Positions 6,493 through 63,336 of a DNA stretch of 64,000 nt are shown piece by piece. The notes under the pieces were generated by a model that did not search any database, was not told where the DNA came from, and saw nothing but the letters and a program-made list of their open reading frames with translations. Position 1 is the stretch's first letter. The number at the start of each line of letters is the position of its first letter. The position numbers and the translations under genes were made by a program. The stretch spans positions 18,788,001 to 18,852,000 of the forward strand of contig OZ076409.1 in NCBI GenBank assembly GCA_964187785.1, in the 5' to 3' direction. This stretch comes from Amphiscolops sp. MND2022 (Eukaryota).

Positions 6493-7972
6493 CTTTTGTG
6501 ATCGCTGCTTCAAACTTTTCAAACTTGAACTCTTTTTAAAATTTGTAGGAGCCATTTTCCTCACTGTATCAAGCATTTATTCATCAAACCTAGAGAGAAA
6601 TGATTTTTTTTTCAAATCGAGAAAGTGACTTAATTGAAATGAGCAAAACATGAACTTGACTTTCTCCTCAAACTTGTCACGCTCCGATGACATCATTATT
6701 ACATCATAGAAACTCTTCTGAATCTTTTTACCTACAACACATTCGTGAAAAAATTGTTTATTCGCATTAATGAAATAATGAATTAAATATTTCATTCACA
6801 ACTAAAACTCATCAACTTAGTTTGGATTTTCCAGACATCTTCATAGCTATCTTTCAAAATTTTGCATTCACGATGCCTGAAACTCACCATTTTTGCCCTG
6901 TTACCAGGATAGAAATGACTCACAAGGACGCCGAAAGACGATTTACAAGAGACGAGCCCAAAGAATTATCACTTTCGCATCGGGACAAACGTTATAGAGC
7001 TCTTGGGTGCGTGTGTATTGTAATTGTCCTTTACTTACTTTCCATTATCACCATCTTATCGGTGCTAGAAAAGACGTACGGTATTGTAACTACAGTTGTG
7101 AACAGATTTCAACTATTTTTCCAACTGGCCAATTAAATTCAATCAGCATGAGTGACGTCAGTTTCTGTACAAACATGCATACCATAAAAAATGCGATTGT
7201 GGATACTGCATTAGCTGATTTTAAATGTAAAGTTGATTCAAAGTGAATTTTTTCCACGGCAATGTTATTCCATTCCTTATGATTTTTGATGTATGATTTT
7301 ACATATTCGAATTTGGATCTCAACTTGCTTCGCACTGTTGGAAATTATTGCCAATTATTGGATTTTTGAATTTATTCTTCTTCTGGCACTGTTTTTCTCC
7401 AGGAAAATAAAACAGAGGCTCTGTTCCTCGATACCCTAACCCCCCAAGAGAGCACATTAAAAACTATTTTTAACCCAATGACATCTACTAGAATGAATTT
7501 TAAGCAAGTACTGAAACACTCAATTTCATTCAATTTTGAATGAATGTTTTGAAAGCGTTTAATTTTTTTCGTAGTTTCGTCGGAAACTTCATTGGTGAAT
7601 TTTATTGAAGATTTTGCCATCCCATTTTAGCACAAATCATCAAATACTCATATACTTGCTTGAAAAAAACATTTACAAAGGAGGTTCTTAGACTCCTGTT
7701 GGTTGAAATGCGTTTTCGGGTGATTGGGGTTGAATCTGGAAAACTGCGGGCACTTGCGGGTAGTTTTAAGACAGTTTGAAGTTGTCGAGGAGCACGTTCG
7801 GGTAGTTTTCAGGCATATTTGTACCCCTTGGATACTTTCGGGGCACTTATGGGATCGATCAGCGGTTTCGGGGCACAGTTGGGAACTTTTGGGGTATGCC
7901 GAACACGTCAATGCAATTTTTTGCTGACAATTTTGTAGGTCTGAGACAGTTTTATAGATGATCGGTTTTGCG

Positions 7973-8460
7973 TTTTTAGTCGGCGCTTTTCTTAGGAAAA
8001 GAGCCCGACTATTACAGTCACTCCTTTTTTTTCTTTTTTTTTATTTGAGACAGACTCGAAGCGACGAACGTTAAAATTAACGTTCAACTACTAAATACAG
8101 TCCTAAACTACTGGACCGGTAAAGGCAAACAGGGACCGCATTCATTTACTTTTAAACGTTACCTACAAGCCCGGACGGGACTAAAGGGTCCCCCCTTTCG
8201 ATTTTTTTCGGCACTGTGAGACTTTTTTTTCGAAATTTTTTAAATGTCCCTAAAGGGTCCCCCTTTGAGTTTTTTGTTATTTTGCTACAGAATGCATGTT
8301 TATAAATCAAAAAGGGTCCCTTCTTTTACATTTTTCGGCACTGTGCGACATTTTCCGAAAGAAATTTTTTTTTCGAAAATTTAAGTTTTTTTCCAAAAAA
8401 AATGTTTTGCGCTTTTTGAGCCTTAGATATAGCGCCGACTTGAGACGTTCCCGTCTTTTT
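7973..8460 (+). mobile_element. Helentron/HINE-like short interspersed element, family A
   Basis: 5' TTTTTAGTCGGCGC, 3' GCGCCGACT subterminal inverted repeat plus AGACG-TTCC-CGTCT hairpin; copies at 52524 and 57381. Confidence 0.7.
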
Positions 8461-16000: not shown

Positions 16001-19000
16001 TCTTTTCTGACTTCTAGTTGTCATTTTTCTGGTTGAAAATTAGAGTCTTCGGCAAAGAGTGAATTCTTCGAAGAAAAGGAGGTTTACGTCTGAACAACGA
16101 AACAATTGAACACAAAAAGCATTTTACAAGATTAACTGAAATTACATGTTGGCTCAAACTATATATACCTTCCCAGCATCAGTTGTTCCCAATTCCAATC
16201 TAGACAACTTTAAACCCTGAAGGCTTTTATTCCGTTCCATCAACGTCATCATTTTTGCTTGTCATACTTTTGTTTGGAATTGTAGATTTTCCCAACTTGG
16301 GAATTGACTCAAATTTCGTCAAACACTATAAGTTGATTCCCAAGTTGGGAAAATCTACAATTCCAAACAAAAGTATGACAAGCAAAAATGATGACGTTGA
16401 TGGAACGGAATAAATGCATTGAGGTTTTAAAATTGTCGAGATTGGAATCGGGGGGAACAAACGATGCTAGAATTAACAAGATTACATGGCATAGAACACA
16501 AAACACTACAAGACTGTAGTAATCAACAAATTTCATACGTTGCCTGAATATTGTTTGCATATTCAGTCAATTCTACACAAATTAAAATAGGGAATAGCAC
16601 AGCAGCAACAGAAAAAAATACATTCTGAACATCTTGCAAAATCAATGAGTTAACTCAATCTTTGGAGAACAGGAACAATGGGAAACTTTACGTTGCTTTT
16701 AGTATGTTTCTTATATAAAGTGGCAAACGCCGTATATTGTCATTCCCTAAAAGATTATTTGCAACGTAAGATCAAGATCAACGTAAACTCCTTATTACAA
16801 GTGTAATACTGGTTTGATATTCATCATTAAAGGCAAGGCTTTCTAATCCTTTCTTACAGTACAGTTTTCCCTGGAATAAGACTAGTCCTAAAAGAAAATA
16901 CTTGAAGCATCAAAATTCGAAGGAATCTCATTCGAAAATCCTCTGAATTTTTAATTCATAGTTTCAATTTTATAATTCAATCCGTAGATGCTCCGTAAGT
17001 ATTAAGAATAGACAGATTCTTACAATTCGCTCCGTAGTCACTCCGTATGTATTAATATCAGGCATAGCTGAGCGGTAGCCGACGGAGTTATTGCAGAGCG
17101 CGTCGGCGTTCAATCTCTTTCTCCTAGCTGGTCGGCGTTGCTATGGTGACATTCTTATTAAATTAAGCTTGCGTCCTATTGGAATGCGCTCAAATAACTT
17201 AGCTAAAGGGCGACAATATTGGTTCGTATAAATAGAAACACCAGCTACTAGCTGAACGGAATGACGCTGTCATTACGTTGTAATTATTTGCTTAAATTAC
17301 ATGACTGTACTTTAAGTGAATTGTGACAACTACATTAACTTTTGGAAAAGGATCCACTATATTTTCTTGTATGTTTTTTCATTTTAGATTGTATGGATTC
17401 CGCTATAATTACGGAGTTTATCTTTGATCCTGATTTTTTCATTTCAGGGTGGAAAAAAACTAATTTCTTGTAACACAATTTGTCTCTGTTTTGCTAATTA
17501 GATCTGCATGTGAATTTCAGAAGATGAGACCGGAAATAAAATAATCACGTGTAAAAAGTTAGACCGGAAGTTTTAGCTATATCGAAATCCTCTCCTAAGT
17601 TGCTTCGTATTGCTTACGTAGATTTTGTTATTCGAGAAAATTACCTGCAAATAGTTTGCCTGTACTGTAAGTAGGATTTAACTAAAGTTTTTAATACTTG
17701 TTGTATCCTCTTCCGTGTCCTCTCCCGAAACCTGGTATGCCAAAACAGCAAGTAAAAGTGCCACCGGGAGCGGGTCGGGACATTCAGCACAGCATTTCCT
17801 GACCTGTTAGATAGATAGGATTTTTGGGACATTAGAACCGATTTGTAGAATTTCAAGGTTTAAAAACGCTAATTTTAGATGATAATCGGGTTCTAATCAT
17901 TTAATCTTTTGGTTAAAATGACCCAGGTTATAGATCTGATTCCTGATTTTTCAGTAGTTAATTTCAATGATTCAGCGTCTATTTTGGTCAATTTTTAGGT
18001 CTTTCTCACTGATTTTAGTCGAAAATGCAGTTTTTCATGATTTTCAGGTGCATTGAGACCCAAATATGTATCTCACGATCTGAGTGGCTCCCTAAAACTA
18101 CAGCATAAGGGCTCTGTAACCAATTTGTGAACTTTGTTTCAGGAGGTTGCCATAGCCCACATCTCCATTTCCAATCTCGGCTGGGGCCCAGGTTGACCTC
18201 ATACTCAGAAATTGTGAATCATTGTTTGTCAAAGTTCGATCATGTTGAAAAATCATAGTATGATCATCATATGGTCACAGTATGGGTCATATATGACTAG
18301 CATGGCAACGATTATGGTCATAGTATGAGTAACCATGTTCGAAATTTTTCAAAAATTCGAAGTCCTCTTAGCGGTGAAATTTGAAATTCGGAACACATCA
18401 AAACGTGACTCATTTGTTTTTTCTAGCTATGAAACATGATCGATCATAGTATGGTCATATGAAACATGGTCGCCATTGTAGGGTATTGGAAATAGCCATG
18501 ATCATTGTATGATCATGCTGTGATCATAGCATGGTGAGTATGATTGGTCAACCTGGGCTGGTCGGCATTCGTCAAAACGAGCGACCAATCAAGTAAGTAC
18601 AAGTCGCTCCGCTTCGCTTTGCTTCGCTTAGCTTCGCTCATGCACGTATGGCACTGTACTCAATTTGGCACTATACACATGTATATTTAGGCGTGTCGCC
18701 ATAGCTGATCAGGTTTTGTTAGTCGGCGCTTCATGAAGTGAAACGCGACTATACTAGTGGGTCTTTTTTTAATCCACACGAACTGACCAAAATAGTTCTA
18801 CAAAGTTCTACAAAGTTCTACGAAACTTTGAGACGCCAAATTGGCACAAGGAACTGAAATATGAAAATTGTTCCTTTTTTCTGCGTAACATACAAACCGG
18901 GCGAGACTAAAGGGCACCTTTTCAGTTTTTTTTGGAATTGTGAGACTTTTCCGAAAAAATGTTTTTCCCCTCAATTTTTTGATGTTTTGCGGTCCAACTT

Positions 19001-22000
19001 TTGAGTTTTTTGGGTATTGTAGAAGAGAATACGTGACACTTTGAAGTCCTTCTGCTATTTTCGAGCCTTGGACATTGCTTATGCAGCTCCCGACTTACGC
19101 CGTTTCCGGCTTGTTAAATTTCAAAATTGACTGAATTTTAACAATTACATAACCGATCATTTTGTTATGCCTAAGATCTGGTCTTTTTGTGGCGTCCCTG
19201 ATGTGTAGAGGGACACAATAATTAAGATAAAAGATTCTTAATTATTTTTGAGGAAATTAATTTTTATGGTAGTTGAAGCAGTTGTTGTTATTGGAAGCCA
19301 ATGTGATAAATCTTTGGTTTTCAAATGGTAGGTGTATGGTGATTTTGACATTTTGTGTAAAGTTTGAAAGATCTAGAATTCGATCTTGAGTCTCTTCGAA
19401 GATCTTGAAATGCTTCATTACCGCCCATATCCCATATGGAAAAAGAAACTAACCTCTCGAACGAGTTTTGCTTTCAAATTTGGCCATTAGCAATTTTTTA
19501 CTACAGAAATTGAGGTTTTTCCTCAATTGATTTCCTGAACAGATGAGGACAGCAAATTAGGTCCGTTACATGTATCCATGAAATGATTTAAATTTTTGAA
19601 TAAAAGTGCCTGAATTGAAAAAAGCTTTTTTTGAGGCATTTTGGGACGTTTTATGTATTTTACACTGTGATTAATGGTTCGATCAATTTATAGGCGAACT
19701 TACGGTTTCTACGAACTTTGGTGGGATGATTTGCGAAATTTCGGGCTGGAATTAGAATACTTTGTCTGCGTAACTATGTTTGATGCTTTTCTTCAAAAGT
19801 TTCAAGTGACCAGAGTTTGCAATAAATTGCATCCTAATATTTTGAAACATGAAACTTTTACCATGTTTTTATACACTTACTACACTTTTATGATTGAATG
19901 AAAATGATGATAAAAATGTCATTATTTATTTTCAAGTTCTTCATCGATAATTCGAAATTGATCGCTTCAATCAAAAACAATTCTTGTCAGGTGTTTTTCC
20001 CAACATTATTTGGCTTTACCATGTTTTGAATGGAGGGAGGAAAAAACAAGAAGGTGATTGCCAGAAGGTTCAAGTTGATTGTTTCAATTTGTTTATAGTT
20101 TATAGTTGCTACATGCTTATAGCCGCCTACCTGTGAGAAGTGATGACGATAGACCTTCCGTCCTCGCGCACCCTGGAGAGGACGTTCCACAGACGGCGTC
20201 TGGTTACGGGGTCCATGCCGCTAGAGGGCTCGTCCAGAAACACGACGGGAGGGGAGCCCATCAACGCGATTGCAGTGCTGATCTTACGCTTGTTGCCTCC
20301 ACTGAAATGCATCATCCCGAATATAGGAAAACTCGTCGAAAACAACTCGCCGAAAACAACTGGTCGAAAATACTAGGCGGAAAACTCGTCGAAAAACAAC
20401 TCGCCGAAATTTCTCCGGCGGAAAACTCGTCGCAAGAACAGATAATAATCTCAGGCAAATATAGTCCTAAATTATTATGAAGTACTGCACTGTAAACTAT
20501 AAAGTGAAACATTTCAAGCAATTATATAATTAAAAAGCTATTGTAGCAATGCGCTATTTCTAATTTAGTTCATTTTCCCAACAGAGGAAATTGACTCAGA
20601 GACATAATAATTTCCAAAGCGGAATTATTAGAGCATTTTAATTTCTAAGCGAATAGCAACGCGCTAAAAGGAAATTGCAATTCCCAAATTCCTTTAATGC
20701 TCAGCCAATAGGAAAAAGCCACGCGACAGTAGAACTGTCCTGAGCTGGAAAGAGAAATACAGGTACCCATTCCAACGCGGAACACTGAGAATTCACTCGC
20801 TCTCTTCTCTTCTCTTTCTTTCCTTACTTTGCTCTCTGACTTAAAACTCTCCCTTAAATTCAGCTGACAAAGAGTCCTGAATTTTAACTTAGAAATATTC
20901 TAAAGTCTGAAAAGCTCGACTTAGAAAATTATTCTATCTTATAAACACCCCACTTCTAATTTACCTTCACTTTATAACAATTTTTTGAGACTTATTGCAA
21001 AGTTAGAAAGCGAGTCCTAAGTAACTAAAATCACCGGTTTACAACATCTGGTGCGGCCAGAGCAAAGAACAAAATCACTCCGCAATTTGTACGACCATAA
21101 AACCGAGCGTACAAAATAAATCTCTTTTCCCTGTGGTGGGTCCTATTTTGCAAAACTGAAATATTTAAAGCAAATATTTCTGAGAAAATTCAAATTCTTG
21201 TTTTTGCAACACTTAGTATCTAAAGCAGATACTAAACAAAATTTCAATTTTTGCAACATTTAGTAATCTAAAGCAGATACTAAACAAAATTCATACTCTT
21301 GGTACTGAGTCTAAACAGTATCCACTAACGCTAACTTCGGTATTAGCGTGTGCGGGTTCCGTGGAAGAAATTTATTTCTGACACACGAGTGTTCCTTAAA
21401 TTGCACGATCCCAGCGAGGTTTCGCAAGAAATTGGAAAGTCCATATTTCACCTCGCCTGCTGCCTTGGAATCTAGCATTCCGTGTTAAGGCTTAAATACG
21501 CAGAAACTGTCCGTTTCAAAGGAGCAACAAAACTCCAAAAATATATATTTGCGAAAGGATCAAAGAGATTCCTTTGTGAACAATTTCTATATGTGTCTTG
21601 GAGCAAAGATACTTCTACACAAAAAACCAGTCTGTTATTGCCAGAAATAATAACAAAATTGTAAATTGTGAAAAAAAGGAGCAAAATAAACGTGATTAAA
21701 TAGACAAATGGCAAACACTGTAGCGTACCCTGACTTAGCATTAGAAAAATTCATTGGAATTGACTCAAGTGAAGATTCAACTGCCTTTATTCGTTTGTTA
21801 GAAAAGAAAATCAGCTTCTCGCTAGGAAGTAGACCTACGGCAAATGAGAACGGCCAACAAACCATTTATGACGACCGTAGAAAAGCACTTTTTGGATCAG
21901 TCCTACGCGGACCTGCGGCTGAGTGGTTTGATTCACTAGACGCTGCGTTAACAAGGGAAGAAATGAAAACACAGTTCATAAACAGGTTCACGGACGGAAA

Positions 22001-25000
22001 AATGCAATATAGATTCCGAATTGAGGCCGAGAATCTGAAAAGACAGCCTGATGAAAATATGGAAAGTTACATCCACAGAATAAAAACGTTGGTAGACAAA
22101 GGCTGGCCAACACCGTCAAATGCGAAAACAAGAGGCTATCACAGCATGCGAAAATCAGAGAATTGGGAAGTACAAAGACTACTTCATAAAAGGCTTAATG
22201 CCCCCGGGTCTTAAACAGAAAGCCCATCAAGCAATGATTGAAGATCCCAACAAATCATGGGACGCTTTACAGGCTCTTATCATAAATAAAGATATGAGTT
22301 TAGTTGTGAGTGCCGAAATGTCCGGCTTGCAACCTTCAAGTTCCCAAACTTTAACAGGGACAATGGACGCCCGTTTCACTAACATTGAATGAAATCACCA
22401 ACATGGTGAAAAATCATCAAATCAATGCTACCTATGACCCGAACAACCCAAAAATGAAACAAGACCTTACTAGATTTTGCAACTATTGCAAAAAATCCGG
22501 ACACACAATCAAGTACTGTTGGACCTTGAAAAAGAAGAAAGAAAACGAGGAAAAACCTCCTCCCCAACCAAAAGAAACATATGCGCAAAACTATCCAAGT
22601 CGACCCAAGTCTCCGAATAATAACACATCACAATCGGACAATCGGTCCAACGGCCAAAGAGGCAGAAGTAATAGTCCTTATGTTTCAAATGGCTATCGAA
22701 GCAGAAGTAACAGCTACTCTGGAGCTGTTCGGTTCGAAGCAAGGCCTGACAAGGTGAATTCTTTGTATGACACTCTGCAGTCATGCAATCCTTTAAACTA
22801 ATCAAGTCTCCGAATCAACAAAGTGAGGAATCAAATGAAACCCCTCACATTCCAACTGCTGGAACGTCCGGCCAACATTTTTATATAGAATTATTTCAAT
22901 ACGCCGTCGGAGACAAAAATAAAAATAATGGCCTTAGCACCCAATTTCTCATAGATACTGGCGCAACGTGCTCCATTATCAACCGTGAGACATTCACTGA
23001 GATTAACAAAATTCAGCCTTTAAATGTAACGCCTCTCGAGAAATCGCCTTTAGCTGCTAATGGACACGCAATGCCAATGAAAGGGAAAACTATTATTCAG
23101 TCTGCGTTTGACGTAGAATATTCTTGTGTGATCGAACACACTGTTTATGTGTCTGATTCCCCCGAGGCGAGAATGAACATTCTTGGAATGGATTTTTTGG
23201 CAAATTTTGGTGAATTCATTAACTTGAGAAATCCAATGCTAATTTTAACGGTCTTCCCCGGCAAATGTGTTAAACTGTCACCTTATTTAGACAAGCCTTT
23301 ACCCTACTTCTCCCAGGTTAATTCAGTAGAATTGACTCAAGACATTACAATTGCACCGTATTCGACCCGAGTTTTGAGTTTAATTGCTAGAGATGAAGAT
23401 AAACATTTGTTCAAACAGGGAACAAGTTTCCGTTTACACCAAGACATTTTAGATACTGGCATTTACACGTATCACGTGTATTGCTCACAAGACGAGTCGA
23501 AATATCCTTTAATGCTGAACAATCCGAACCCGAATAGTATTACTATTCGTAAAGGAATTCTTGGATACACATTGCTCGACAGCGTCCAAGAGACCTCGCA
23601 ATTGATGAGTGTCGTTGACAATGTCGCTTTCATTGAGTATCTCAAAACTTCTGAGTCTCAATGGAACAAGGATTTACACGTTTGTTCGACCGAACCGTAT
23701 ATTTATTCCTTAACGGAAATTGATTCACGGAAACAAATGGCCGAAAGCGCTATTTCGCAAAATGAACTGGCTACTGATTTCTCCAATGAGGTGAAATCAT
23801 TACAACCGAAAATGCCCAAAATTGCTTTCGATATTAAAAGGAAACAACTCGACGATGAATTTTACGCCGAGTTTAGTCCCGCCGAACGCAACTTTTTAGA
23901 AAAGTTCGACTTTTCTGAATCTGATATAAATGACCGTGAATTACAACATCTTCTCCGAGTTTTAGTTGAAAACAATGACGTGTTTTCAAAATTTACTTAT
24001 GATGTTGGAAAAATCACACAAGCATTTCATGTACAATTGAAGAAAAACGCCGAATTACGAAAACAAAGGCCCTCAAAAGTCCCTCTGCACTACAGAGACC
24101 GACTTGAAATTCTTCTGAATGAACTGCAACGAGCTGGAATCATTCGAGAAATGGGAAATGATGTGGAAATGGGTTCCCTATTCACAAACCCTATCATCAT
24201 TTTACCAAAAGGAGATACCGTGAAGCTTGTGATTGACGCACGTTATCTTAACTCAATCACTGACTTGACTAACTACTCATGGCCCCTTGAACCAGTACAA
24301 ATGTTACTGACACGACTTGATGGAGTTTATTACACAACGAGTGATTTAGCTTCCGCCTATAACCAAGTACCCCTCACCGAGGATACGAAGAAGTTGACAA
24401 GCTTTATTGTTGGTGGAAAACAGTACATGTTCGAACGAGGATTCTATGGTCTTTGCGGACTACCAAACTTCTTCAGTCGGATAATGACTATTCATTTCGC
24501 TGAAATGATAGCCAAGAAACAAGTGATAACATATATTGATGATGTTATCTTACAGGGAAAAACCAAACAAGAAATGTGGAATAATTTGGATTCATACTTC
24601 AAGTGCTTGAGATCATCAGGTCTGAAAGCTGCACCGAACAAAACAAAACTGTTCTTGAGGAAAGTTCAGTTTCTTGGACACATTGTTTCCGACAAAGGAA
24701 TCCAGCCAGTAGCCAAAAAGGTACAAGATTTGAAAAACCTGAAAAGCCCTGAGAACAAAAGAGATGTAATGCGCATCTTAGGAAGTTTAGGTTTCTACAG
24801 CACTGTCGAGCCCCACTGTGTGGGCCGGCTTTGAAGGACCTTTCGAAGTTGATTGTCGGTTTTCGGTGTCTGCCTTACTTATGACAGCCATCATTAAGTC
24901 CTTCAGTTGACTAAACTCATTTTGTAACTCGTTTATCTTTCTTTCATAACTCTCTTTTATTTCAGACAACTGAGACGAGATATCAGAAGTTTCGTTACTA

Positions 25001-28000
25001 TCGGAGTCATTGGCAGAGGACTGAGCCATGTCTGGATCCGTTGGAACAGGTGTTTCTAACGAGGAACTAATAATTCTTCCGCTTCTGAGTTCAGTGCCTA
25101 GATCTGGGTTCATAGAGATGGGAGAAAAGAATTATGAGTGAAGACTGGATTATCTGAGATGTTATTGCGATGTATTTTTGCTATTTTATCTGATTTTACG
25201 ATCTCTAATTCACTAAGTTTGAACAGAGATGTTTTATCGATGACTAGTACAAATAAACAAGTCGTAAAGAAAGTAGCAGGAAATTAGTAAGGTGAATAGG
25301 AAAGTTCATCCAATGTTCATCGCAGTTGTAAGTGCGTCAAAAGAAATTACTCAGTTTTAGTATTATAGTTTCTGAAGATGAAAATGAGATGTATTTTCGA
25401 GTAAAATTCGACGTGGGGTGTTCAACTGGATAGTAGCTTGTCGCAATTTCGGTCTCAGTAATCGCTAATGGCGGTCCAAAATACAGCAGTTCACGTGTCT
25501 TTTCAGGCTGGTAAGACGCTAATCTCTTACCAGCCTCTTCTCATTGGCTGTTACCACTGGTGTTAAAATGGTAAGTCACGTGACCGGTGTTGTGAACTGC
25601 CGCAAAGTGGCCACGCACCATGGCACATCTACATGTGTTAATGGCGTTTAGTCATCAATTTACAGTGTCGCAATTGCCTGCACATAACATCATGGTTTCT
25701 ATAGTAATTAAAATGGACTCAAATTATTCAATAACGCACAAATTTCAAGCAAATTTAGAGTAAAGCACACTTTGGGATGGGAAAACGATGTTTTCCGCTG
25801 ATTCTAGCACCAAAATCAATGATTTAAAACTCGAAGATGGAAATGCGATGAACTTGTAAGAATATTCGCTGATTTCCAAGTATAGTTTAGCTCTGGATGA
25901 AAATGCGATGAATGGTAGTCTTTCTCGCTCGGAAATCAACACTATTTAAAATGACGATGATAAAAGGATGAACTCTCTTCGAAATGAACGATTTCCAGCA
26001 CAATTTAAATCGACGATGGTAAAAGGATGAACTCTCCTCGAAAATAGCTAATTTCCAGCACTAGTGAAAATAACGATGAATTCAGGATGAATTCAGTCGA
26101 TAAAACAGGTGAAACAACTAATTCTACAGTAAAGACAAATATACGATGACTTTAGGATGAATACATTCAATAAAACAGCAAAATCTAATGAATCGAATTC
26201 CAACGATGAGTTTAGGATGAACTCAACTGAAAATTTGGCTAATTCTAGCGCAAGTTGAACTAGCGATGAATTTACGATGAACTTGTGTAATAAATCTGCC
26301 AAATGTAGTGCGAACTAATTTTACAATGAACTAGTGATGAATTAGTCTAATAAAACAGATATCCAGCACTTCACTCTTTTTTAGGATGAATTAAGGATGT
26401 ACTTTCTCATTTCTTATTGTTACTAGTCAGGACGATGAAATATAGATGTGTTATGCTCTTTTAAGAAATGAGAAGCATATTGAAGGTTAATAATCACAAA
26501 ACGGCGATGAGTATGGGATGGTTTTCATGCATTTTAAAGTCCCGTGAGATCCGCTGATGGATCATTAAATGAAATCAAATAAATGTCCCAATTTTTGTTC
26601 ACCCGCAATCTTGGCGATGTGATTGCGATGAACTTTGATAATATAGCACTGTAATTTCACTAGTAAGTCAAGCTGAAGGATCACTAAGTCCGCTGATGGA
26701 TTAGTGATGAACTCTTTCTGAAATTCGTCACGACTACAAGCCCTGAGGCGGGGAGCTAGTAGAAGTTACAGGTTTCATTATTTCTACATCTCTCGGTCCA
26801 GTCTGACCGGAAAACTTCTCTCCCTTGTCGTGACAAACCAATATTGAATAAGATAGCACATTAAAGGCCATTGGCAAGATCATTTGTGCGGACACCGGAA
26901 CTAGAGCGCTCAGTATTAAGTAAATATATATAGCTCAAACTCAGGGGGGATAGGGATTAAGGTACAAGTAACGTAGGGTTGCTCACAACCATGGCTCTTA
27001 TTATATGACATCATATTGCCCATATCTAAGTACATAAGACATAATATTTACATTACAGATATTTAGTAGATTATATTTCCATCATGCTGGCATGACACTC
27101 CCCGGGGCGGGATTTGGACTGAGAGTGCAGGGGCCAAATGTGCAGAGGATGGTTGTCTCGGCGTTGGCTTCGACTGGTCCTTCGTTTGGTTGGGGAGAAA
27201 ATGGCCTTCGTTAGTTCTGAACTGGCATGTCCTTCGTTTGTTCTGTCCTGTGAGAGCTTCTCCGAGAAGAGGACCTTCGGTAATCGTCTTTTCTGGCATC
27301 ATCCTGGGTGATTTCGGTTAAAATTTTCGACGCGGCAACTCTAATTCTTGGTCCATCGAATGTCCGCTGATCTGCATTTTATTGATTGTCATGCTTTTGA
27401 CGGGAGTTTCGGCTGGTTATTTTCGGTAGAAGCTGATTTCTCGGAGAAAAGTTTCCCTCCAAAACGCCTACGCTGAATAAACAATTCGATTAGCTTCATT
27501 GACAAATTGGCAGCGAGTCGGGGATGAATGAACGATGAATTGTTTGCTCAGCGAGACATCGATGCTGGTTTAGCGGAATGGCTGGCGCCGTTGCTTTGTT
27601 TACTCGCGATGGAAAGGAGATGAATCGTCGTCATAGCAACTGCCAAAAGTTACTTCCGCTGCTCGACTTTTGAGTGAATGAGAAAGAGATGAATTCGTCG
27701 CCATAGCAACTGTTGCCCGATCTGATTGGCTGAGACTGAATTTATAACTGAAGGAAATTACAACCGGTTGTCAGCAGCATTCTCATCCATAAATCATCCT
27801 CCATTCAAGTCGGTTTGAAAATCGCCACGATTTCCTTTTGCGCGTTTTCCGCTCAACTTCGTCGGTATTGATCTGAGACTGGCAGCTGTCAACAAATCAA
27901 ATACTTGAAGTTTTTTGTCAAGTCCTAGGAGAGGACGATCCATTTTTCAGAGAAAGCTTGAGTTGGCTGTACTGAGAAGAAAAGTGATGTCAGTATTTGA

Positions 28001-31000
28001 AATCGGAGAATTTTTTATCGATTTTTCATCTTCTGAATCCAAGTATTTGATTAACATGGCATTCAAGCTGCGTCGCGCCCTTTGAAATCTTCTATTGAAT
28101 TTGTTCTTCCGTAATCATGGTTGATCAGGCCATTTAATTACTGATCAAATTCTCTGTTCCTGGATTCTTCGATTTCTTTCCTTCTTTCACCTTCTTCCAT
28201 TCTTTTCAGATTGTTTCTGCAATTTCTTCTTCGAGTGCGAGATGTCTGATATTCATTCAGTTCATTCGTTACCTGAGACCGAGGCCACAGAAAGTAAGTG
28301 CACTATTTTTTCTCTTCTTCACAAACGGGTTAGGGACAATCAATTACTTAAGACGCACCCTTGCTTTTAGCTGATTCAGTCCACTCAGTGGGCGTCGTTT
28401 CCGAACTGACGACTCTAGAGACAGTGCCGCCACAAGCAGCTCCAGTCACTCAAGAGGTGAATCCTGAGTTGACTCCAGCTCCGAACGTCCCTTATTATCC
28501 GCAGTGTAAGTACTTATCCATCCAGAATTTCAATCCAGTCCGCGATCCTCTCGTTCTCATCCCTGTCCAATCTAGCAACTAACTCTCTCCGTTCGATGTT
28601 TAGATTACTATCCCTGGTACTCCACCCTTGGTAGTATCACCTTCGGGTGGTACGACCAGCATATGAGAGACATGCTGCGGGATAGCATTCTTCAATACAG
28701 TGAGTTGGCCAATTTTCATCTCCGTTTACTAGGGCGTCGTCCAGACATTGCGATGTAATTCCGATATTTTCTATCTCATCTTCATGTAATGTCTTTTGCG
28801 GTCGGTTTGCCATTTAATGTATTATAGGGATGAATTTGAGATGAATTAAGGGTATTTGATTCCCTTTTTGAACGATATTTTGCATTCTCCATTCAGGGAT
28901 GGATTTGTGATGAAGTTTTCGTCAATCTTCTTTCTTCACGCGTTATACGCGCACTTTCTTCTCAGGCCCATTTCTGTTTGAGTGTTATTTTTGTAGGCCC
29001 TACTCCGATTCATGCGCCCGTCCCACGTCCCATCGTGTATTCGATCGGGATTGGGACCAGTGACTACCCAGACGAGGGCGTAACTGTCAACACCTCCGGA
29101 GGGCCACCACAACTGAACGTCTCGTCGTTCCTCGACGACCTGACTGCCGCCGATACCAGTTCTCCAGTCAGGCGGACGTCGGTTCCGGTGTTGTCGCCGA
29201 TTTTGCAGCGAACTTTCTCAATTGTCAGTCCACGCCGTCCCCGACTTACTATTGAGTCGGGTGTCAATGCTGTCGTCTGCTGCAGTGACGTTTCTTTGAG
29301 TGCCTGTGTAGATACTGCGGACAAGGAGGTCCAAGCCGTTATTGAGACTGCTGATGGTTCCACATGTTATGAACCCCAGGTGGAGACTTCCCTGTCTGCT
29401 TCTCCTCCAGTCGTCGATGATACTGAACTGCTCACCCCTGATGCCAATCAGACTGCTACTTTTGCTTCTGTTCACTCTGAGGCGATCATTCCTGAGGATC
29501 CTGCCATCGGAACAGGGACTTTTTCTGACGTTCCAGCAGGCATCACGATTGCTGATCCCTCGTCTGCCGCACTTGATTCGGAGACAGTTCCACTTCAGCT
29601 GGAGCTTGAGCTTGCAGTGACTTCTCCGATGGGGCCTAGCCTACTAGACTCAGACGATGAGCCAATTGCTTCCCATCTCCCAGGTTACCTAAACAGCTTT
29701 AAAACATGTGAAGTATCTGATCAGTACCTGCATTCATTCATTTTCCTTTTTTTCATTCTTGCTAGCAATTCAGATTTTTCGTCTTTTTCATCTATTTTCC
29801 ATCGTTTTAGTTCTTTCCGCTGTTCATTTTTGCAAGTTATGTTTTTTCATCATTTTCTCATCGTTAAAGGTTTTCAAACATGGCGTTTTTCTCTTTTGTC
29901 TTGCATTCTAGCTATTTTAGCCACTTTTCATCTCTTTTACATCCTTAAAATTTTCTTTTTCGTTTTGGCTATTTTTCAGTGTTTTCTTTTCAGTTTACAT
30001 CCCCTTTTCATCGTTCAGTTGTTTTCGCTCTACAATATCTCAATTTTGGTTCAAATTCGTTCTACACATCTCTTTTTCATCGTTCGATTTTTTCGTCTTT
30101 AAAAGTTTCAATTTTCATTCTGGTGGTCTGCAAACACATCTCTTTTTCATCTTTTCGTTTTTTCTTCGTTTTTTCGCTTATATTTCCCGATGAAAATATT
30201 ATTTTACATCATTTTTTCATCACTCCGGGTGAGATTTTTGGAAAATTTCAGTGGATTTTCGAATTTTCTTTTTCTGAGGATGTGTAGAGGATGAGTTAGA
30301 CAATTTCCGTTTTCTTTTGATTTCAGGAAAGAAGATTCTCAAGACTGCGTGGTTTGCTCATGCGTATTGTGGATTGGCCCTGGGCTTCGCTAAGGACCAC
30401 CGGACGCGAGAGTCCTATGTCAGGTGTCTCCTGTGCAAGCAGGACGTCAAGATCGCCAGCAGAGGTATCACGACGTTCTGGGAGCACTGTCGGGGCATTC
30501 GTCATCATAGGCTCGATTGCTTGATTCGGCTACGGCGGGGTCTGGCGTTGCGGAAGCGCGATGGGACGCTAATGTCCGAGGCAGAGTCCAAAATGTGTGT
30601 CGCTAGTCTGGCGGGTGAGGCTGTGCCTGCGGTGGAGTTGTGCCCGAACCTGAGCGTTGCGGAGGTTCTGCGAGCCGAGCTGGACGGCAGATCTGCATGG
30701 GGCGAGAGTCAGGAAGCCGAAGACGAGATGCAGACCGAAAGTGTGCGGCTATTTGTATGTTTAGTGATCGATGCAATCTACCGTGACTGCAATTTCACAA
30801 GTGTGCAGCATTTGTGGGATTTAATGGTTGCATCAAACTCCCGACATTCGGCTCTGTTTGGCGCGTTTTGCCGAGATAGCGACGTTCTGGTTATTATGAT
30901 TTTTCGTACTACTATATGTGGTTTACATGTTACATGTTTTCGGTTTATGTGAACAATTTCATGAATATTTACAATTTTGGGTGAGGGGTACACATTTTTA

Positions 31001-34000
31001 GAGTCTCTTTTTTTGTTTTGAGTATTTTCGTAATTGGTTGTATGGGTTTGTACCGAGTTTTGGACGATGTGTTTTGGATGGATTCGATGTTGTTGTTTTA
31101 GCGTGTGGTGCTTGTGGGACTCTGGCCATACGTTATGCGCCGGATGATCAATGTGTGGACCGAGACCGAGTTTACGAGTTTCAGTGTCGCCATTGTTGCC
31201 GGAAGAGTGGTGGGGTCAGTGACCGTATGCACGCCAGAAAAACCTATGAGCTACGTTGTGTTCTCATTTATCTATGCTCAGGGGTGGGAACGTCGCGTGG
31301 TTTCATGGGTCGTGGACACGCTTTGTTGCGCTGTCGGGCAAGTTGCACCAGTTGGTGTGAATTGCAAATTGATGCCAGGCCTCGAGAATGTTTTGGCGAG
31401 CAGTACTGGACAAGGAACTGTGACAGTTGTCCCTTTGCGTCTGGTGAAGATCAATAAGACCCTCGTGGATGTCAGTGTACGAGTGATGGGCGGTATTGAT
31501 GTTCACACGATGTTAAATCACCTTCAGACGAGGTTGAAAGAATTCATGGACGACCCTATCATCTTGGCTTGTCCCAAGTTACTGCAGGTAATTTTGGTAC
31601 TTAACAGTAGACTGTTTGGTTTCTATGTACATGTGTTTAGCTGGTATGTGGTTTATTGGCAATTTTTATATATTTTTCACGTGTTGATTTCAGTCTGTGC
31701 TCGACGGTGAGGTCACCTTGTGGGACGTTCCGGACGTGTTGGTCGAGCTTTGTGAGAACTGGTCCGGGGTCACCATGTTGCTGCGAGTGCCTAGCCGATC
31801 CGGAATGGTCGATTCATTGGATTTGGTTCTGTGTGGCGATGTTAGCTTGCCGTTGCGGTTGCATGCTTTAGCGGTTGTTTTTCGTGCTCGTTAGTATGTT
31901 TTATATGTTTTGCGTGGAGAATGTCTAAACAGTAAAGTTGCATGGGTAGGAACGGGAGGGGGGGTAGTGTTGGTTAACGTGGGTTGGTTTTTGGCGCAAA
32001 GTCCTGAGCAATGTTCGTTTGTTTTAGTTGTAACGTCGTATCAGTGGAGCTTTAGCAGCTGCAGTTTACGCAGTTGTCATTGGGCATTTGAAAGTGCCTC
32101 GTTTGTTCACAAGCTCTTAACTATTCTGGTGGACGATGTGGATCTGCCATCTATCTACAATGTGAGGGCGTGCCTGAATGTCGATGTGGCAAGTCTTGTG
32201 GTGTCGCCTATGAAGGTGGAAGCTCTGAGAGGGCAATTCAGACAGTACGAAGAGTGTTTCACGGATCCTGCCGTGTTTGTCAATCATTTCCTGCAAGTAC
32301 AGAATTTCTTACTGGAGGTGGTTGCAGAAGTGCTCATTGTGGACGGGATGAGGGAGGAAGTTACCTTCCACTTGAGTGTCTGTTGTCCTGCTTTATTGTT
32401 GTCCAGTGACGTTGCAGTGTTAACAGAAGAGATGTCGCTGTTTACAGGACTGCTGTTTGATCTAAATCGCGTGACTGCCGTCGAGAGAGCGCGTATGGAA
32501 CAAAGTTTCCCCTCGTTCCTAGAACGATTTAGGAGTCTGGCAACCGATGTGTCGGTCCATGATGCTGGTTCCGCAGTGGAACTTTTCCGAGTGTGCAACA
32601 GTGTTTCGATGCGCAAGCTGATGCGTTATTTGATGTGCCTCAACGAAAGTCCTCTGTTGCCAGTGGGTGCCGCATGTGTGGAGGTGGGCCAACTTAGTGG
32701 TGACGTTACGACGAGTGTGTGTGCGAGCATCCTAAGTTTCTTGAAGTCGCAGTCAGTGAGAACGTATGAAAGTGTCAGCGGGCCTCTACTAGAGGAAGTC
32801 TGTGAGTCATTCGGGCGTCTCACCGTGTTGTCAGAGCTGACGGAAGAAATGCTCTGGGACGATGTGGGTGTGGTTGCCGCCGAAGACTATAGACAGTCTC
32901 TTTACGAACTGGTAGGCTACACCGCTGAGGGGGAGAGAGCACCAAGTCCCGAGATATGAGAGTACTGATGCTGAAACTTTGTCTTTTATACATACTGATG
33001 ATTTTATATGTGGTATTTGTATTATTATAGATAGCAATTAGTTTAGTTGTGGGTGGCCAAATGGACATGTCGTTTTAAGTGACATGAATGAATAAAAGAA
33101 AAAACACTGCGTCGGAAAAATCGGCAGTGTACTATGTACAAGTTAAAGATTTGGCACCTGAATTTGTTTTTCACCTGAGTTTCTAGTGAGTGGGAATGCA
33201 GGCAGAGTTCGGCTGTGGTCGCATTATGTGTTTCGTGATATAGTTTGCGTTAAATGGCAGTTCTATTTTCATTTGTCATCGTATTCACATCGTTTTAAAT
33301 TTATTCGGAGTTTTTGATGGTTTTTGTCACGGTGTTCATCATTATTATATCTCGTGCAAATGTAGGTAATTGGACAGCGCTTCGTGTGGACCTTTCATCT
33401 CACATTCATCACGTTTTCTTCAGTCGGCCGAGCGACGTCGTGGAAACTGTTTTTGTCATCGTTTTTACATCGTTTGTTATATGCGATTTATTGCATGTTT
33501 GTTACATGTGATTTTTCTACATAGTTCATCGTTTTTTCATCTTGCCTTTGAATTTTTGCATTTTTGCTAGTTTTTTGGTGTAATTCATCGTTTTTGCATC
33601 GCAAGTTTGACTTGGCAAGTTTTTTGCTCATTTTGTTGTATAGTTCATCTTCTTTTTATCGTGGTTTTGAAGTGTACGAATTTTTGCGTGTTTTCGATGT
33701 TATTTGGCTATAACGTAATCGGGGGTTGCATTTTTCATGTCTGGGAGAAATTATTATTAATATTGCGTTGTTTCGAAGTATTTTTTCATGTATTTTAGCG
33801 TTATACGGTTATAACCGTTTGTCGTGTTTTGAATTTGCATGAATTTTGTGGTACATGTGTTTTGATCATCGTCGTCATGTTTCGAATTTGTCAACTACGG
33901 AACGTCATTGCATGTATTTTTATTTCGAGTTCTTGTGACCGCCGCTTGCGTGGCAGTCGAAGATAATTTCACTCAGCAGTGGTACTGATAGCCTGTAGGC

Positions 34001-37000
34001 GTGCAAGGTACTAGTGGCTTCAGTCCAAAGCTGGGTGAGTGGAGCTGCTCCGCTGCTTTCAGATGAATGGAATCTCGTAGTTTCGGGCTATATATAGTCT
34101 ATATGTCATTTTTTCGGTTGGTTGTTTGCCATTATTCGTCGAAATGGGTTTGTCCATTTGACGGTCAGTCCGATCAATTAATATGATTGACAACTACGGT
34201 TATGCATGTGTCCAGTTTTAGACTATCTGTTTCTTGTATTTGCATGTATGGGTTGTTACATGATGTGTTCTTTTAAATGGGTTGCCCCATTATTGACATG
34301 TCGTTATATGTTCGGTGTTAGTTTCATGTTTTTAATTTTATTTTCGTTCATTTGGACAGGGCTTTGTCGTCACAAAGCCCCTACAAAACTAACTGAGAAT
34401 CCACTAGCCGCTGGATAACCAACGCAGCAAGCTTCATCCGAATATGGTTGTGAGCTCCCCGCCTCAACTAACCAGCACTCTTTTCAGAGAAATGCCAGCC
34501 AGCACGAAGGAATGTTTTTGGCTTATCGATAGGGGTGTCTTGGTTGTTATGAACTGATGTTTGCTGGGGGGTGCTCACTCCTTTGTTAGTTTTGTAGGTG
34601 TTTCGTCAGTTCTTATATTTTGCATGTAAGTTAGTAGGCTTCATGTATTTTCGATTGTTTGTTTCATTTTTATTCGTCTAGGTTTGGATGGTTTTGGTGT
34701 GAATTGCATATATTATCTCATTCATTTTTAAACGGTACATGTATATTTCCGTGCGTGGCTCATTTGTATTGCATGTAGTTTGGAATTGTTAATTTCTTTC
34801 GTGACGTCATTGATTTGGCAGGTCTTTGAACCGTACATGTATTGATCATTTCATTTTTGTGTCGCATAATTCTATTTGCATGATTCGAAATAAGGTCGGC
34901 TGTTTTTATCGTTTCGTGGAGTTACATGTTTGTTTGAGAATTAGCTGATTTGTTGTGATGTTATGTTGATGGTGTTTCCCATCACAAAAAGGTTTTGGTA
35001 AGTCATTTAATATTTTCGAACTTCCATTTAGACTAAATTCATCGTTTTGACATCCTCCAGCGAAGCTAGAGTATTGTGTCAGGATAACGATAAATTCGGT
35101 CACGATTTGATGGTAGTGTCCATCACAAATTCATCTCGTTGAATGATTTCATGTAGTTTATGAGTAATTGGGTCGGGTTCATCGCTATTTCATCCTCTAG
35201 CCGAGCTAGAGTCTTGTGATAGCATGAACGTGAGTGCGTTCGCATTCTGATGGTAGTTTCCATCTCAAATGCATCGCTATTAAATATTACATGTTGATTG
35301 GTCGAATTTTTGACTGAGTTCATCACCTTTTCATCTCTGAGGTAAATTTTCATGTGATTTCATCCTTTTTTCATCTCGAAATTTTTATGGTTTGTTTTTT
35401 TCTGGTTTTTTGATCGTTTTTCATCCGTTTTACATCGCGTTTTGTTTGTATGCGTTTTTCATGTGATTTTTAGTAACTTTTCATCCATTTTACATCTTCA
35501 TGTGTTTTTTAATTTAAAATTGCATGTAACTAACTGGTTTTTGTGACCTTTTCATCCTTAACACATCGTGTGTTTGGAAATGTGGTTTTTCATGGCTAAA
35601 TCGCTACGTCTACTTTGTTGGTCTTTCTCAGAGAGTTTCTAGCTGATGTAATCTCATGAATAAGGAAGTCAGGATATTTTTTCGGTGTAGGGTTCTCGCG
35701 TAACCTGTACCTACTTTGATTTGATCTAGACGGTCTAGAACTCATCCTTTCTTCATCTTTATTTTGCGTGTTTGTCTGTTGTGACTGATTTTCGTGTTGT
35801 TCGTCTCTCAGAGGTACTCTTATCCTACTCTCATCGCGGGGAGGCGGTAGAATAATTTCTTCTCGCGTTCCAAATCTAACTGTAGGTGGTCTAAAGTTGT
35901 TGTGGTCAGTTTCTACTTGTTGATATTCTATTCTCGTGGTTATTTCTGGTGGAAATACTTGTGGACTGTGTCGCTCTTGTACTGGTGGAACTATTTCTGC
36001 TGAAGGTTCATCTTCGACTAAGTCTTGATCTAGATTGTCGTTCTCGTTCTGATCTACGTCGTCGGTTGTCGGAATATTCGAATCGAATATGTCCGTGTCT
36101 TCAACCCTTTCAGTGTCTGGGTAAAGATGCTTGGACACGTTGATGTCATCAATCGGAAATTCCGGTTTGAACAATCTCAGTCGCATGCGATGTACGCACT
36201 GAGTTTGGTGTGTGCCTACTTTGCGGATGATGTAGTTGCTATCGGATATTGCATTTCATCACCTTGTACGGTCCTTTCCAGTGGAAAGTTTTAAACTCTT
36301 CTTTGCTTCTCTGAGAGTCGTACTTAGGGTCTAGTAGGAATACAAATTCGTTCACCTTCAGTGGTTGTGCTCGTGCTTTTCTATCATAGTACGTTTTGTA
36401 CTTGTGATAGGCGGAAATGATGTTATCTAGATTGTCTCTGAAGATAAAATTCATTTTGTCTAGAATTTCGTTCACGTCCTTGCACTTTGTTTCAGCCGGT
36501 TTGTTTGCGTTTCGGAATTGCAGATCTAGTGAGTTGTATGGTGTTCTTCCGTGGAAAATTTCAGTTGGTGAACATTTCAGTGAATCATGATACGTTGTGT
36601 TATGGGCCATGATTGCTATGTCGACATAGCGGTCCCATTGTGGTCTGTCTGCGTTTACACTAATTTTAAGGATCTTTTTCAATTTCGCGTGCGTTCTCTC
36701 CACCATGCCTATTGTCTGCGCGTGCTTTATCGTGGCATGGGAGATGTGAATATCAGCCGCTTTCGCGATTTCAGACAGAAGTTCAGCCGTGAACGCCGTG
36801 CCCTTGTCCGTCAGAATGTGTTTGGGCACATACGCGTGTTTTGTGAAGATCGACAGTAATCCTCTGACTACGGAATGTGTATCAGGTCTCTTCAGCGGAA
36901 CGGCGAACAGGTAGCGCGAAAAAACGTCAACAGCCGATAGAATGTGTGTAAAACCGTTCGATGCCGGGAGTGGACCAACGATGTCTATTTCCAACAGGTC

Positions 37001-40000
37001 TTCTGGTCCGTCGCACGGGTCGTAGATATTTTGTAACGGTGGACGTAGTTGCGTTTCTTTTACACTTTTAGACTTCATGCAGTTTTCACATCCGTCAAGG
37101 ACTTTTTGAACTTTACAGGCTAAGTTAGGAGAGTAATATCTTTTACGAAGTTCATACAACATTTTCTTTAAACCAGGGTGTCCTTGTACCGGGCTGTTAT
37201 GTAGAGTCCTAATTATTTTTAAAATACAGTCTTCAGGAACAACTAACTGCTTGTGAGACTCCAGTCCCGTGTGACCAAAAAACTGTCTGTACAAGACACC
37301 GTTTACAACTTGTAGGCGTTTTCGGTTTTTGTGCAACTTTTGAAAAAACTGATCTTGCATATTAACTGGGTGTTGCAAAATTTCAGTACCTTCTAAAAAT
37401 CTAATCATTTTTTGAATAACCCAGTTATTTTTCTGGACCTGAATTAGATCGATCCCCTCAGCGGGGCTAACCTGACTCATTACCGGGTGTGATAATGTTA
37501 CTTTACGGATGAATTGCGAGAGTTGAATCGGCTCGTCCACGTCTGTGAGGCGGTACGTCAGATGGTTGTCAGTCGCGAAGTCATCTGAGGCCGCTGTTCT
37601 CTCACAGTTGGTGAACTTCATCCCTTTCCCATCGTCATGAGCCACGTCAGTGCCAGTTGCCAATTTCATCTCTTTGACATCCTTCTGGCGTTTGCATCTG
37701 AGTGGTTCGCTCGCGGGAAAGTAATCAGGCTCGTCTTCCTCCTGTTTTGGTGTACGGGAGGCGATGTCGATCTCGATTCTGTGAATTGGAATAGTATCAG
37801 TCAATTTTAAATGTACACGGTCTTCAGGTCTAATCTCAAGCCGAGATAAGTAATCCGCTGCGGGATTTTCAACTCCTGGTACATGTGCTAGTAAAAAATT
37901 GAACTGAAGGGTTTGGTCACAAAAATTCCAAAGTGAAGGCGGGATATGTTTCGCCTGAAAAAATCTAGTCAAGGCCTTATTGTCAGTCATAACAATGATG
38001 GGTTTTTTCGCACCCCACAAAATGTGGCCAAATTCATCGAAGGCAAAGTGCATAGCTAAAAACTCTTTGGCATACATTGTTAGAGACATCTGGCCGCCCT
38101 GAAATTTCTTAGAGCCAAATGCAACAGGGGCGTATGTATGTTTGACTGACGGGTCTGCATAATCCTCGATTAACAACACATAGCCGGCAGCGTGTTCGCT
38201 GGCGTCACACATGATTACCAATTGTTTATCTGGTAATGGCAATTTCAGGGACACTTTTGTTGCTTTTAACAAACTTTCATTAATTTCAAAAATAGCATCT
38301 TTATGTTGTTGGTTCAGCTTGAAAGGGACGTCTTTCTTGATGAGTTCCTGTAAACAACAAGTTTTATCAGCTAGACGGGGAATATAAGACCTGTAAAAGT
38401 TTACAAAACCAAGATAACGTTGCAACGCTTTCACTGAATTGGGGGGTTTCAAATTGGTTAAATAGTCTGTTACGCGTTTTTCAATGGGAGCAATACCAGT
38501 GCTAGAAATGGTTTTTCCCAAGTACTCGATTTGTTTTTGTCCAAATTCACATTTACTCATGCTAAGTTTAAGACCAGCTTTGTGCAATTGTTGAAAAACA
38601 AGTTCAAGGTTAGTAATCAATTCTTCGGGTGAGTGTGCTGCAATTCCAATATCGTCAACATATTGGGCACAGCGGTCCGCTTTGACCAAGGGGTCCAAAT
38701 ACTCACGGATTACTCCTGTGAATGCTGACAAAGAACGATTAAGACCTTGTTCTAGACGTAAAAATGCAAAAGTTCTAGACCCAAAATTAAACGATAACAG
38801 TTGGACAGATTGCTCATCGGCCATTGGAATGCAATGGTAGGCCTGGGAACAATCAAGTTTGCAGAAGTACTTTTTCCCGGCCATGTGTTGGGCAGCGTCA
38901 GCAATTGTTGTTACGGGATGATTGTGCTCACCGTAATCGTTTTTGATCAGGTGGTTTATTCTTCTCAAGTCAACTAAAATCCTCAATTTACCATTAGGTT
39001 TACGCTGAGCAAATATCGGGGAAGAGTATTTGCTGTGAGGCAAAGTAGTTATAATCCCGTACTCTTGCATTAGAGCTAACTCCACGAGCAAATCGTCCTT
39101 CAAATTTGTCGGAGTCGGGAGACTTTGTGAATAAACACGTTCTTCATGTTGAGGTGTTAACTTAACTTTAATATCAGTGTTCATGCCAATATCAAAACGA
39201 TGTCTAGCAAAAATGGAGTTGTACTTTACCAGCAACTCCTCTACCTGTAACCGTTGAGACGGAGTAAGAAGCGAGTCGTCCCAGTTGAAGTTCTTCAGGA
39301 AGTTCATCCGTTGTTCATCGGATTGGGACGGGTCAAGCTTCTCGAGCTCTCGCAGTGCCAGAATCTCATCATAAATCCGTCGCTCAATTGAGTTGAGTTT
39401 GTCTGGCTCACTGCACGTCTCGGGAGTTGGGTACCACTTGGTTGACTTCATTTCAGGGTTCACGAACAGTTGGTTGATCACTGCTTCGGCTTCATCTGGG
39501 TACTTGGTGATCAAGTTCAAGTGTTCCACTGGCATGGGCGTGATGTTTGCCGCCTGGTGTGGTGTCGGGATGCGAAAGTGTGCCAGAGTGGTGTTGGCTT
39601 CAAGTGTGTACGTGTGGTTGTTTGGGTTGGTGACCTGGATTGTCGTCTTGCCCTCGTCTAGGTCAACCAAAGCTGGAGAAACAAGCAAACACGTCTTTCG
39701 CATGAATCCAGGTGAGCCCTCAACTGTACCAGTTGTAAGTGAGATGTCCGCGTCACTGTGGACCTGTATCATCACTTGATGGAGAGGAGGGATCACTGTT
39801 CTAGTACTGGAACACAAATCAATTAAACCAGTTTTGAATCTGTTGTTCTTTTGCTGTCTAACTTGCATGGACATCATGTGATTAGGGAAGTGGACAAGGT
39901 GGTTTTTGATGTCTAAGTTGACTGAGTACTTTTCAAAAAAGGACATTCCAATTAAAATTGTTCCCATTGTTGGAAGGATTAGGAACGTTTCTTCAAATAC

Positions 40001-63193: not shown

Positions 63194-63336
63194 TATATGT
63201 CGTGTCATTTTTGTTTACAAATTTTGAAAAAAAAATGTGTAAGTTTAGCGTGAAATTGGCCGAAAGTATCCTGACACTGCGCCGTGAAGTTATTGGTTAT
63301 TTAGCGTGCATTGCTGCGGAGACTAGCTGAGAAGTT

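Follow-up and report, generated by a model that had tools for sequence, protein, structure and literature searches.

The analysed window, a stretch of 64,000 nucleotides of eukaryotic DNA rich in repeats, holds two Ty3/gypsy elements, one nested inside the other. The inner element carries many copies of the bipartite motif GATG-N7-GATG (the doublet), which form a code spread over the whole element and most concentrated in the LTR array. The doublet occurs 76 times in the window, compared with 1.72 expected copies (0 of 100 shuffles gave more than 5), and 73 of these copies belong to the inner element, whose LTRs hold 18 and 17 and whose internal region holds 38. Elsewhere, two doublets fall in 12.1 kb of the outer element and one in 32.5 kb of flanking DNA, where the cargo-free control is the single outer element and the DNA compared with it comes from one cargo-bearing element. 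The doublets are very probably DNA-binding sites. We propose that the cargo protein encoded antisense by the same element binds these doublets and thereby plays a regulatory role in either direction, with a leaning toward activation; for this reading as a whole, we regard the balance as even.

Nested elements and the antisense cargo gene

The inner element is located on the minus strand, spans 19.4 kb and interrupts the pol gene of the outer element (Table 1). It displays the features by which a Ty3/gypsy element is recognized, namely a TG...CA LTR pair, a short target-site duplication, a primer-binding site and a polypurine tract, and Pfam assignments place gag before PR-RT-RH-IN, as in Ty3/gypsy. 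The inner element is young; its LTRs are 99.7% identical, with 7 substitutions over 2294 bp in a self-BLAST comparison. The first ATG of gag is located 310 bp into the 5' LTR. On the strand of the element, the LTR has a single AATAAA, which falls at 42043 within the LTR-internal portion of gag (about 100 codons, 41886-42195; equivalent 24804-25113). The outer element has an env-like ORF (PF24664) at 47108-49459, a further 453-aa ORF without a Pfam match at 49862-51223 and an apparent 4-bp target duplication, CTAT.

Other repeats also occupy the window. On either side of the outer element (20326-20440 and 52143-52242) lie short arrays of the AACTCGTCGAAAAC type, inversely oriented, as if the outer element had inserted into the centre of a small DNA transposon. 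At 63305-64000, units of 17-27 bp (GACAATTCGTC-type) form arrays that include inverted copies and are truncated by the end of the window; these arrays look like the subterminal repeats of another DNA transposon. The window further contains a 750-bp direct pair (1453-2203 and 5750-6495; 93%), a dispersed family of short elements (7972-8466, 52521-53016 and 57378-57888), a 122-nt inverted repeat (16188-16452) and a 170-bp tandem triplet (59420-59854).

The cargo is predicted to be an intact spliced protein gene, whose introns would survive reverse transcription because they face backwards. At the borders of intron 6, conservation in the read-through frames of a relative stops and then resumes. 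Exons 4, 5 and 7 have 80, 52 and 43 matches, respectively, many of which belong to multi-copy clusters; judged from these matches, the cargo is conserved over many multi-copy families. The TATA-like stretch upstream of the gene may be a possible antisense promoter. The net charge of the cargo protein is +13 in the finger region, -33 in the N-terminal 291 aa and -11 in the tail. The last 50 or so residues of this tail (32790-32959) are acidic and poorly modelled and constitute the best-conserved part of exon 7 (conservation of 0.81-0.83 versus 0.62-0.79 for the rest of the exon in 34 aligned sequences), and they are a candidate partner-binding motif.

Table 1. Features of the nested elements, the predicted cargo gene and the doublet clusters
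Feature	Position	Strand	Description
Outer gypsy element	20541-52032	+	LTRs near 20541-21046 and 51527-52032, 99.4% identical
5-bp target-site duplication AGCAC	24799-24803 and 44180-44184	+	within outer gypsy pol
Inner element 3' LTR	24804-27097	-	2294 bp, TG...CA, 18 strict doublets
Second LTR cluster	25158-25391		4 doublets, 3 plus and 1 minus
Main array	25776-26709	+	14 strict and 1 one-mismatch GATG-N7-GATG, one orientation, 10-bp phased
TATA-like stretch	26920-26935	+	TATATA at 26925, between array and cargo gene
Polypurine tract and cargo leader	27098-28241		tract adjoins LTR; 3 doublets (27523, 27608, 27784)
Cargo gene	28242-32959	+	predicted 7 exons, 1016 aa, no internal stop, introns all GT-AG
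Cargo exons 1-4	28242-28293, 28371-28505, 28997-29683, 30327-30889	+	predicted
Cargo intron 2	28506-28996	+	2 doublets, 69 bp apart
Cargo intron 3	29684-30326	-	8 doublets (7 minus, 1 plus), gaps 59-81
Cargo exon 4 finger	30327-30889	+	basic C-x2-C-x16-H-x5-H, then helices; model pLDDT 88
Cargo exons 5-7	31102-31587, 31694-31889, 32028-32959	+	predicted
Cargo-pol spacer	32960-35595	-	15 doublets, clusters 33277-33600 and 34957-35567
Inner element pol, PR-RT-RH-IN	35596-40708	-	8 doublets; frame changes near 36239-36255, towards the end of pol
Inner element gag, CCHC knuckles	40687-42195	-	coding part without doublet
Primer-binding-site-like sequence (TGG...)	41868-41885	-	abuts 5' LTR
Inner element 5' LTR	41886-44179	-	17 strict doublets, main array 42858-43791

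A doublet of fixed spacing and helical phase

The original prediction described an array of paired GATG cores in the LTR, and the repeat units are indeed present there, with 14 strict doublets in 25760-26730 versus 0.045 expected from 200 dinucleotide shuffles. They recur in the main array of the other LTR, as was also claimed. The cores were thought to be 12 bp apart, but the actual distance is 11 bp, at which 18 LTR pairs are found versus 0 at the other spacings from 6 to 19 bp. The proposed period of about 60 bp is real as an autocorrelation peak at lag 60 (identity 0.394; mean 0.277, sd 0.023; next peaks at lags 120, 11, 130, 71 and 49) but fails as a fixed unit length, given that the real spacing follows steps of 10 with gap values of 49, 59-60, 70, 72, 79, 110 and 120. 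The predicted contrast of conserved cores and diverged spacers holds over 15 units, in which identity amounts to 0.98 in the cores, a value set by construction through the choice of units, 0.40 in the inner 7 bases and 0.33 in the outer flanks, compared with 0.27 in random sequence. The inner spacers are A/T-rich. The main array covers 934 of the 2294 LTR bp, and the doublet at 25158 in the second LTR cluster is missing from the other LTR through a core substitution.

Because the doublet flanks are near random, the array is not a minisatellite. A plain minisatellite, with equally conserved spacers and one unit length, was rejected on these flank identities and on gaps that range from 40 to 120 in steps of 10. 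Tandem duplication does feed the array, because two adjacent units share 71% of their flank sequence and form a 59-bp tandem repeat, a recent duplicate. Tandem Repeats Finder detected only 25940-26079 (period 59, 2.4 copies) and one 11-mer pair in the array.

The motif had been regarded as a feature of the LTR, a view that is too narrow for the 38 further doublets of the internal region, which lie mostly on the opposite strand. When every 4-mer direct repeat with a spacing of 4 to 24 was scored without reference to the motif, GATG at a spacing of 11 ranked first in the inner element, with 56 occurrences versus 1.6 (35-fold), and the same analysis of the outer element and flanks did not place it in the top five. 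Doublet density per kb is highest in the LTR (7.9), the cargo introns (6.6) and the cargo-pol spacer (5.7), followed by the cargo leader (2.6), pol (1.6), the cargo exons (0.3) and gag (0). Doublets occur in both orientations, and each cluster is mostly of one orientation. The LTR clusters are oriented plus and the majority of internal clusters minus, a pattern in favour of a duplex target.

Same-strand neighbouring doublets with gaps of at most 130 bp are spaced at multiples of ten, with a best zero-phase period of 10.0 bp and a negative phase fit at 10.5 bp. To lessen the influence of tandem duplication, a gap value was entered a single time for each cluster; of the 26 distinct values, 24 deviate from a multiple of 10 by no more than 1 bp, a result that none of 2000 random sets equalled. 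Two same-strand pairs that lay outside the defined clusters or more than 130 bp apart were excluded from the phase test; one excluded pair, in the cargo leader, has a gap of 85 bp and is off phase. The seven clusters show flank identities of only 0.24-0.32 among one another and are not copies of each other. Thus, in the absence of common flanks, each cluster attained or retained the phase on its own. From the 10.0-bp phase, we infer a multivalent reader or wrapped DNA.

The doublets extend into coding sequence. Seven of the eight pol doublets lie outside Pfam domains and are translated as D-x-x-x-M, and the eighth is located on the opposite strand within the protease. Among 120 pol relatives, at least three D-x-x-x-M peptides are found only in the inner element's own cluster (4) and in a family that is about 90% identical in RT-RH (3). 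In this latter family, 12 of the 15 listed proteins have compatible D-x-x-x-M peptides, and the longest protein contains 6 versus 0.5 expected; the middle residues of the peptides have changed, and two positions go beyond those of the window element. The 13 listed sisters at 70-76% identity have 0 or 1 D-x-x-x-M peptide each, and of the comparison clusters, one has such peptides in 2 of its 15 proteins, at a single site each, and the other in none of 15. At the level of these protein sequences, from which the motif of the sister family was back-inferred while DNA was read for the window element alone, the pol motif is shown to be family-specific. In one sister cluster, 11 of 15 proteins contain 2-3 peptides that would fit a core spacing of 14 bp. 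A 14-bp half-site spacing in this cluster, noticed post hoc at homologous positions, would be only a lead. In the pol RH-IN linker of P0005, P0008, P0011, P0013 and P0100, two D-x-x-x-x-M peptides are 21 residues apart, and these would fit the GATG cores at a distance of 14 bp.

The cargo finger protein as candidate reader

What kind of protein would read these doublets? The original prediction favoured a BED finger from a hAT transposase. The cargo does contain a conserved C2H2 finger, and its ligands are kept in 39, 37, 36 and 34 of 41 aligned relatives, which represent 41 of the 80 exon-4 matches. The BED assignment fares less well, as sequence methods lean weakly to BED and structural alignment leans to a U1/matrin-type finger, whose fit is equal or better. 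ZBED2 (2DJR) is the top match of the cargo finger, at a non-significant level. The Arg-Gly pair that presumably reads bases is kept in 35 and 37 of the 41 relatives, down to about 21% identity, and thus does not look like fast-changing specificity.

The hAT link failed in the profile tests. Exon 5 scored 9.5 against the RNase H-like hAT core, and 23 of 25 shuffles scored as high (sequence profile alone); the whole-cargo profile gave P 0.21 against hAT. The PF05699 dimerization domain was detected at E 0.5 in 0 of 34 exon-7 relatives versus 5 of 8 reference hATs (hhalign P 0.53), and no inverted repeats of at least 40 nt were found around the cargo gene, which sits inside the LTR element. A hAT transposase identity is not supported: every profile test against hAT references was non-significant, and PF05699, TIRs and a target-site duplication of its own are not seen for the cargo. 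As a separate observation, language-model features of exon 5 point to GNAT acetyltransferases (atlas 0.89; 105-123 shared features, a low count). No Pfam or NCBIfam match to GNAT was obtained in 35 relatives, and a RimI profile, whose segment does not cover the fold, was equalled by 2 of 25 shuffles. If real, a finger combined with an acetyltransferase would suggest direct chromatin modification. Because the hAT and GNAT tests were all non-significant, the cargo is a finger protein of no assigned family, and its transposase ancestry is a guess drawn from motifs.

We propose that GATG-N7-GATG would function as a double-stranded-DNA site composed of two 4-bp half-sites one helical turn apart, which would repeat along one helix face at 10.0-bp multiples. 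The element would place doublets wherever its sequence is free, in the LTR, introns, spacer and pol linkers. The most likely reader would be the element's own antisense cargo finger protein, expressed from the 3' LTR side; provided that the doublets are DNA-binding sites, the cargo has a reasonable likelihood of being the binder. A 4-bp core alone would be too short for specificity, which pairing, phase and density would supply as several fingers of an oligomer bind the dense phased clusters, so that even a short motif would be family-specific. Through its acidic regions at the N- and C-terminal ends, the protein would attract factors of transcription or chromatin and maintain the element in an open state, as with VANC and TnpA, and once cargo binding is granted, activation or anti-silencing is likely rather than another use. 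The identity of the reader, the oligomer and activation are components of the scheme that we infer. CpG depletion was seen nowhere in the window, elements or flanks (o/e 0.88-1.19); there is therefore no sign of DNA methylation of the kind that VANC removes, and any silencing that the cargo opposes is probably not CpG methylation.

Several other explanations deserve consideration. The doublets may recruit a host DNA-binding protein, such as an activator, insulator or chromatin factor, to which the cargo is unrelated, in the manner of the Su(Hw) array carried by Drosophila gypsy. Distant cargo families retain the loop residues of the finger, whereas the pol motif is confined to one clade, which fits a host factor. 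However, doublets are scarce in the outer element and flanks, site density is greatest in the LTR, in the introns of the cargo gene itself and in the spacer next to it, and an enhancer would not require sites in introns and pol linkers. We consider a host factor the foremost rival, though an unlikely one, and the strict 10.0-bp phase together with motif copies in pol linkers would be notable even with such a reader.

Alternatively, the cargo may bind the doublets non-transcriptionally, either by coating or wrapping linear cDNA, so as to protect it or to assist its entry into the nucleus or its integration, or by organizing the integrated copy. The doublets span the element from end to end, pol included, and the 10.0-bp phase suits wrapped DNA better than free DNA, for which 10.5 bp would apply. 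A role of this kind is nonetheless quite improbable, because the densest array adjoins the presumed promoters, the protein has long acidic regions and the LTR tips are devoid of sites, which first appear about 400 bp in.

A motif that acts in RNA is highly improbable. Complementarity between LTR and internal region in genomic RNA or a U1/matrin-type finger that reads sense-antisense duplexes could be envisaged, since 11 bp corresponds to one A-form turn and U1/matrin-type fingers often bind RNA. However, even the longest stretches matched between the LTR and the internal region (16-36 nt) consist largely of the motif, the doublet gaps follow 10.0 rather than 11, intronic sites would be absent from the cargo mRNA, and no Rfam match was found in the element. 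A decayed minisatellite or a passive nucleosome-positioning pattern without a specific reader, which the one 59-bp tandem pair recalls, is largely refuted and barely credible, in view of near-random flanks despite exact spacing, a motif and phase common to seven clusters with unrelated flanks and persistence of the motif in coding linkers of the sister family.

Comparison with known self-recognition systems

Element-encoded regulators that act via LTR repeats include foamy virus Tas and HTLV-1 Tax, whose response elements are few and mostly LTR-bound, and HBZ of HTLV-1 is an antisense gene expressed from the 3' LTR. The cargo system resembles them, by these general descriptions alone, as an LTR-repeat regulator and an antisense gene from the 3' LTR, but its doublets are many and element-wide.

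Closer functional parallels come from DNA transposons. The VANC motifs of VANDAL elements, which are MuDR-like transposons of Arabidopsis, are dense, same-oriented and also located in introns of the element's own genes, and motif binding and demethylation have been demonstrated (PMC5735166). Density is the source of specificity for both VANC and TnpA (PMC5735166; bioRxiv 10.64898/2026.08.24.746577). Like VANC, the present element encodes an accessory gene and carries a dense, family-specific short motif that has one orientation per cluster, occupies non-coding parts including introns and spreads by tandem duplication. Such dense oriented clusters in the non-coding parts of an element that encodes the candidate factor are what typifies a VANC-type system. 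Unlike VANC, the host is a Ty3/gypsy element, the motif is a bipartite 4+4 site strictly spaced at 11 bp and phased at 10 bp, pol contains sites as well, and binding by the cargo is proposed. Membership in VANC was rejected, as the host is not MuDR-like and Pfam scans of the cargo exons revealed no VANC/MAIN-type or other known accessory domain.

TnpA of Spm/CACTA is likewise an element-encoded regulator on dense clusters of a family-specific motif, and the study describing it proposes that transposases become activators via loss of catalysis (bioRxiv 10.64898/2026.08.24.746577). That study deals with DNA transposons, and the terms 'LTR' and 'retrotransposon' are absent from its main text. The cargo is similarly a regulator candidate encoded by an element with dense clusters of a family-specific motif; it differs from TnpA in its retroelement host and in a transposase origin that is a guess. 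The BED finger of the hAT transposase Hermes reads a 4-bp motif in an AT-rich context through two domains that act cooperatively, and ZBED2 (2DJR) is the only zinc-binding structural homologue named in the accessible part of that report (PMC10368747). The doublets share with Hermes a 4-bp core in an AT-rich context, which Hermes reads by paired fingers, and the 2DJR link, which is non-significant for the cargo. In contrast, the Hermes sites form a quasi-palindrome near the tips and serve excision, whereas the doublets are direct repeats across a retroelement, and no hAT catalytic or dimerization domain was detected in the cargo.

The nearest retroelement parallel, as far as the accessible text extends, is Retand, a plant gypsy element with antisense TRP28 ORFs that are predicted to bind DNA and for which a regulatory role has been proposed (PMC11963269). 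Both elements have a long region between pol and the 3' LTR with an antisense ORF and family-specific repeat arrays (PMC11963269). The cargo differs in its predicted splicing and its zinc finger and is paired with an explicit element-wide candidate motif, whereas none is defined for TRP28 in that text (PMC11963269). The Retand lineage was rejected because Pfam scans of the cargo gave no TRP28 (PF04195) match. Accessory ORFs are also described in the accessible portions of PMC13547354 and PMC6431247, without such a protein-motif pairing there, and our literature search, with supplements and subscription papers outside its reach, returned no published match for this system.

The best-supported reading is that the system would work like VANC and TnpA while being a member of neither, nor of Retand. 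Sequence-specific self-recognition found in print (VANC, TnpA and transposases as activators) concerns plant DNA transposons. A broader picture, which we hold tentatively and with some doubt, is that of a non-plant LTR-retrotransposon clade with a captured spliced, catalytically dead transposase-like antisense finger gene as its private activator or anti-silencer. Its family-specific phased address would lie in LTRs, introns and pol linkers, and the half-site spacing may differ (11 bp here and perhaps 14 bp in the sister). It would constitute an independent VANC/TnpA-type system without visible CpG depletion that possibly reads wrapped or nucleosomal DNA. In the present case, a single LTR retrotransposon combines a candidate protein with a candidate site of unusual sharpness, and the role of antisense cargo ORFs therefore becomes testable.
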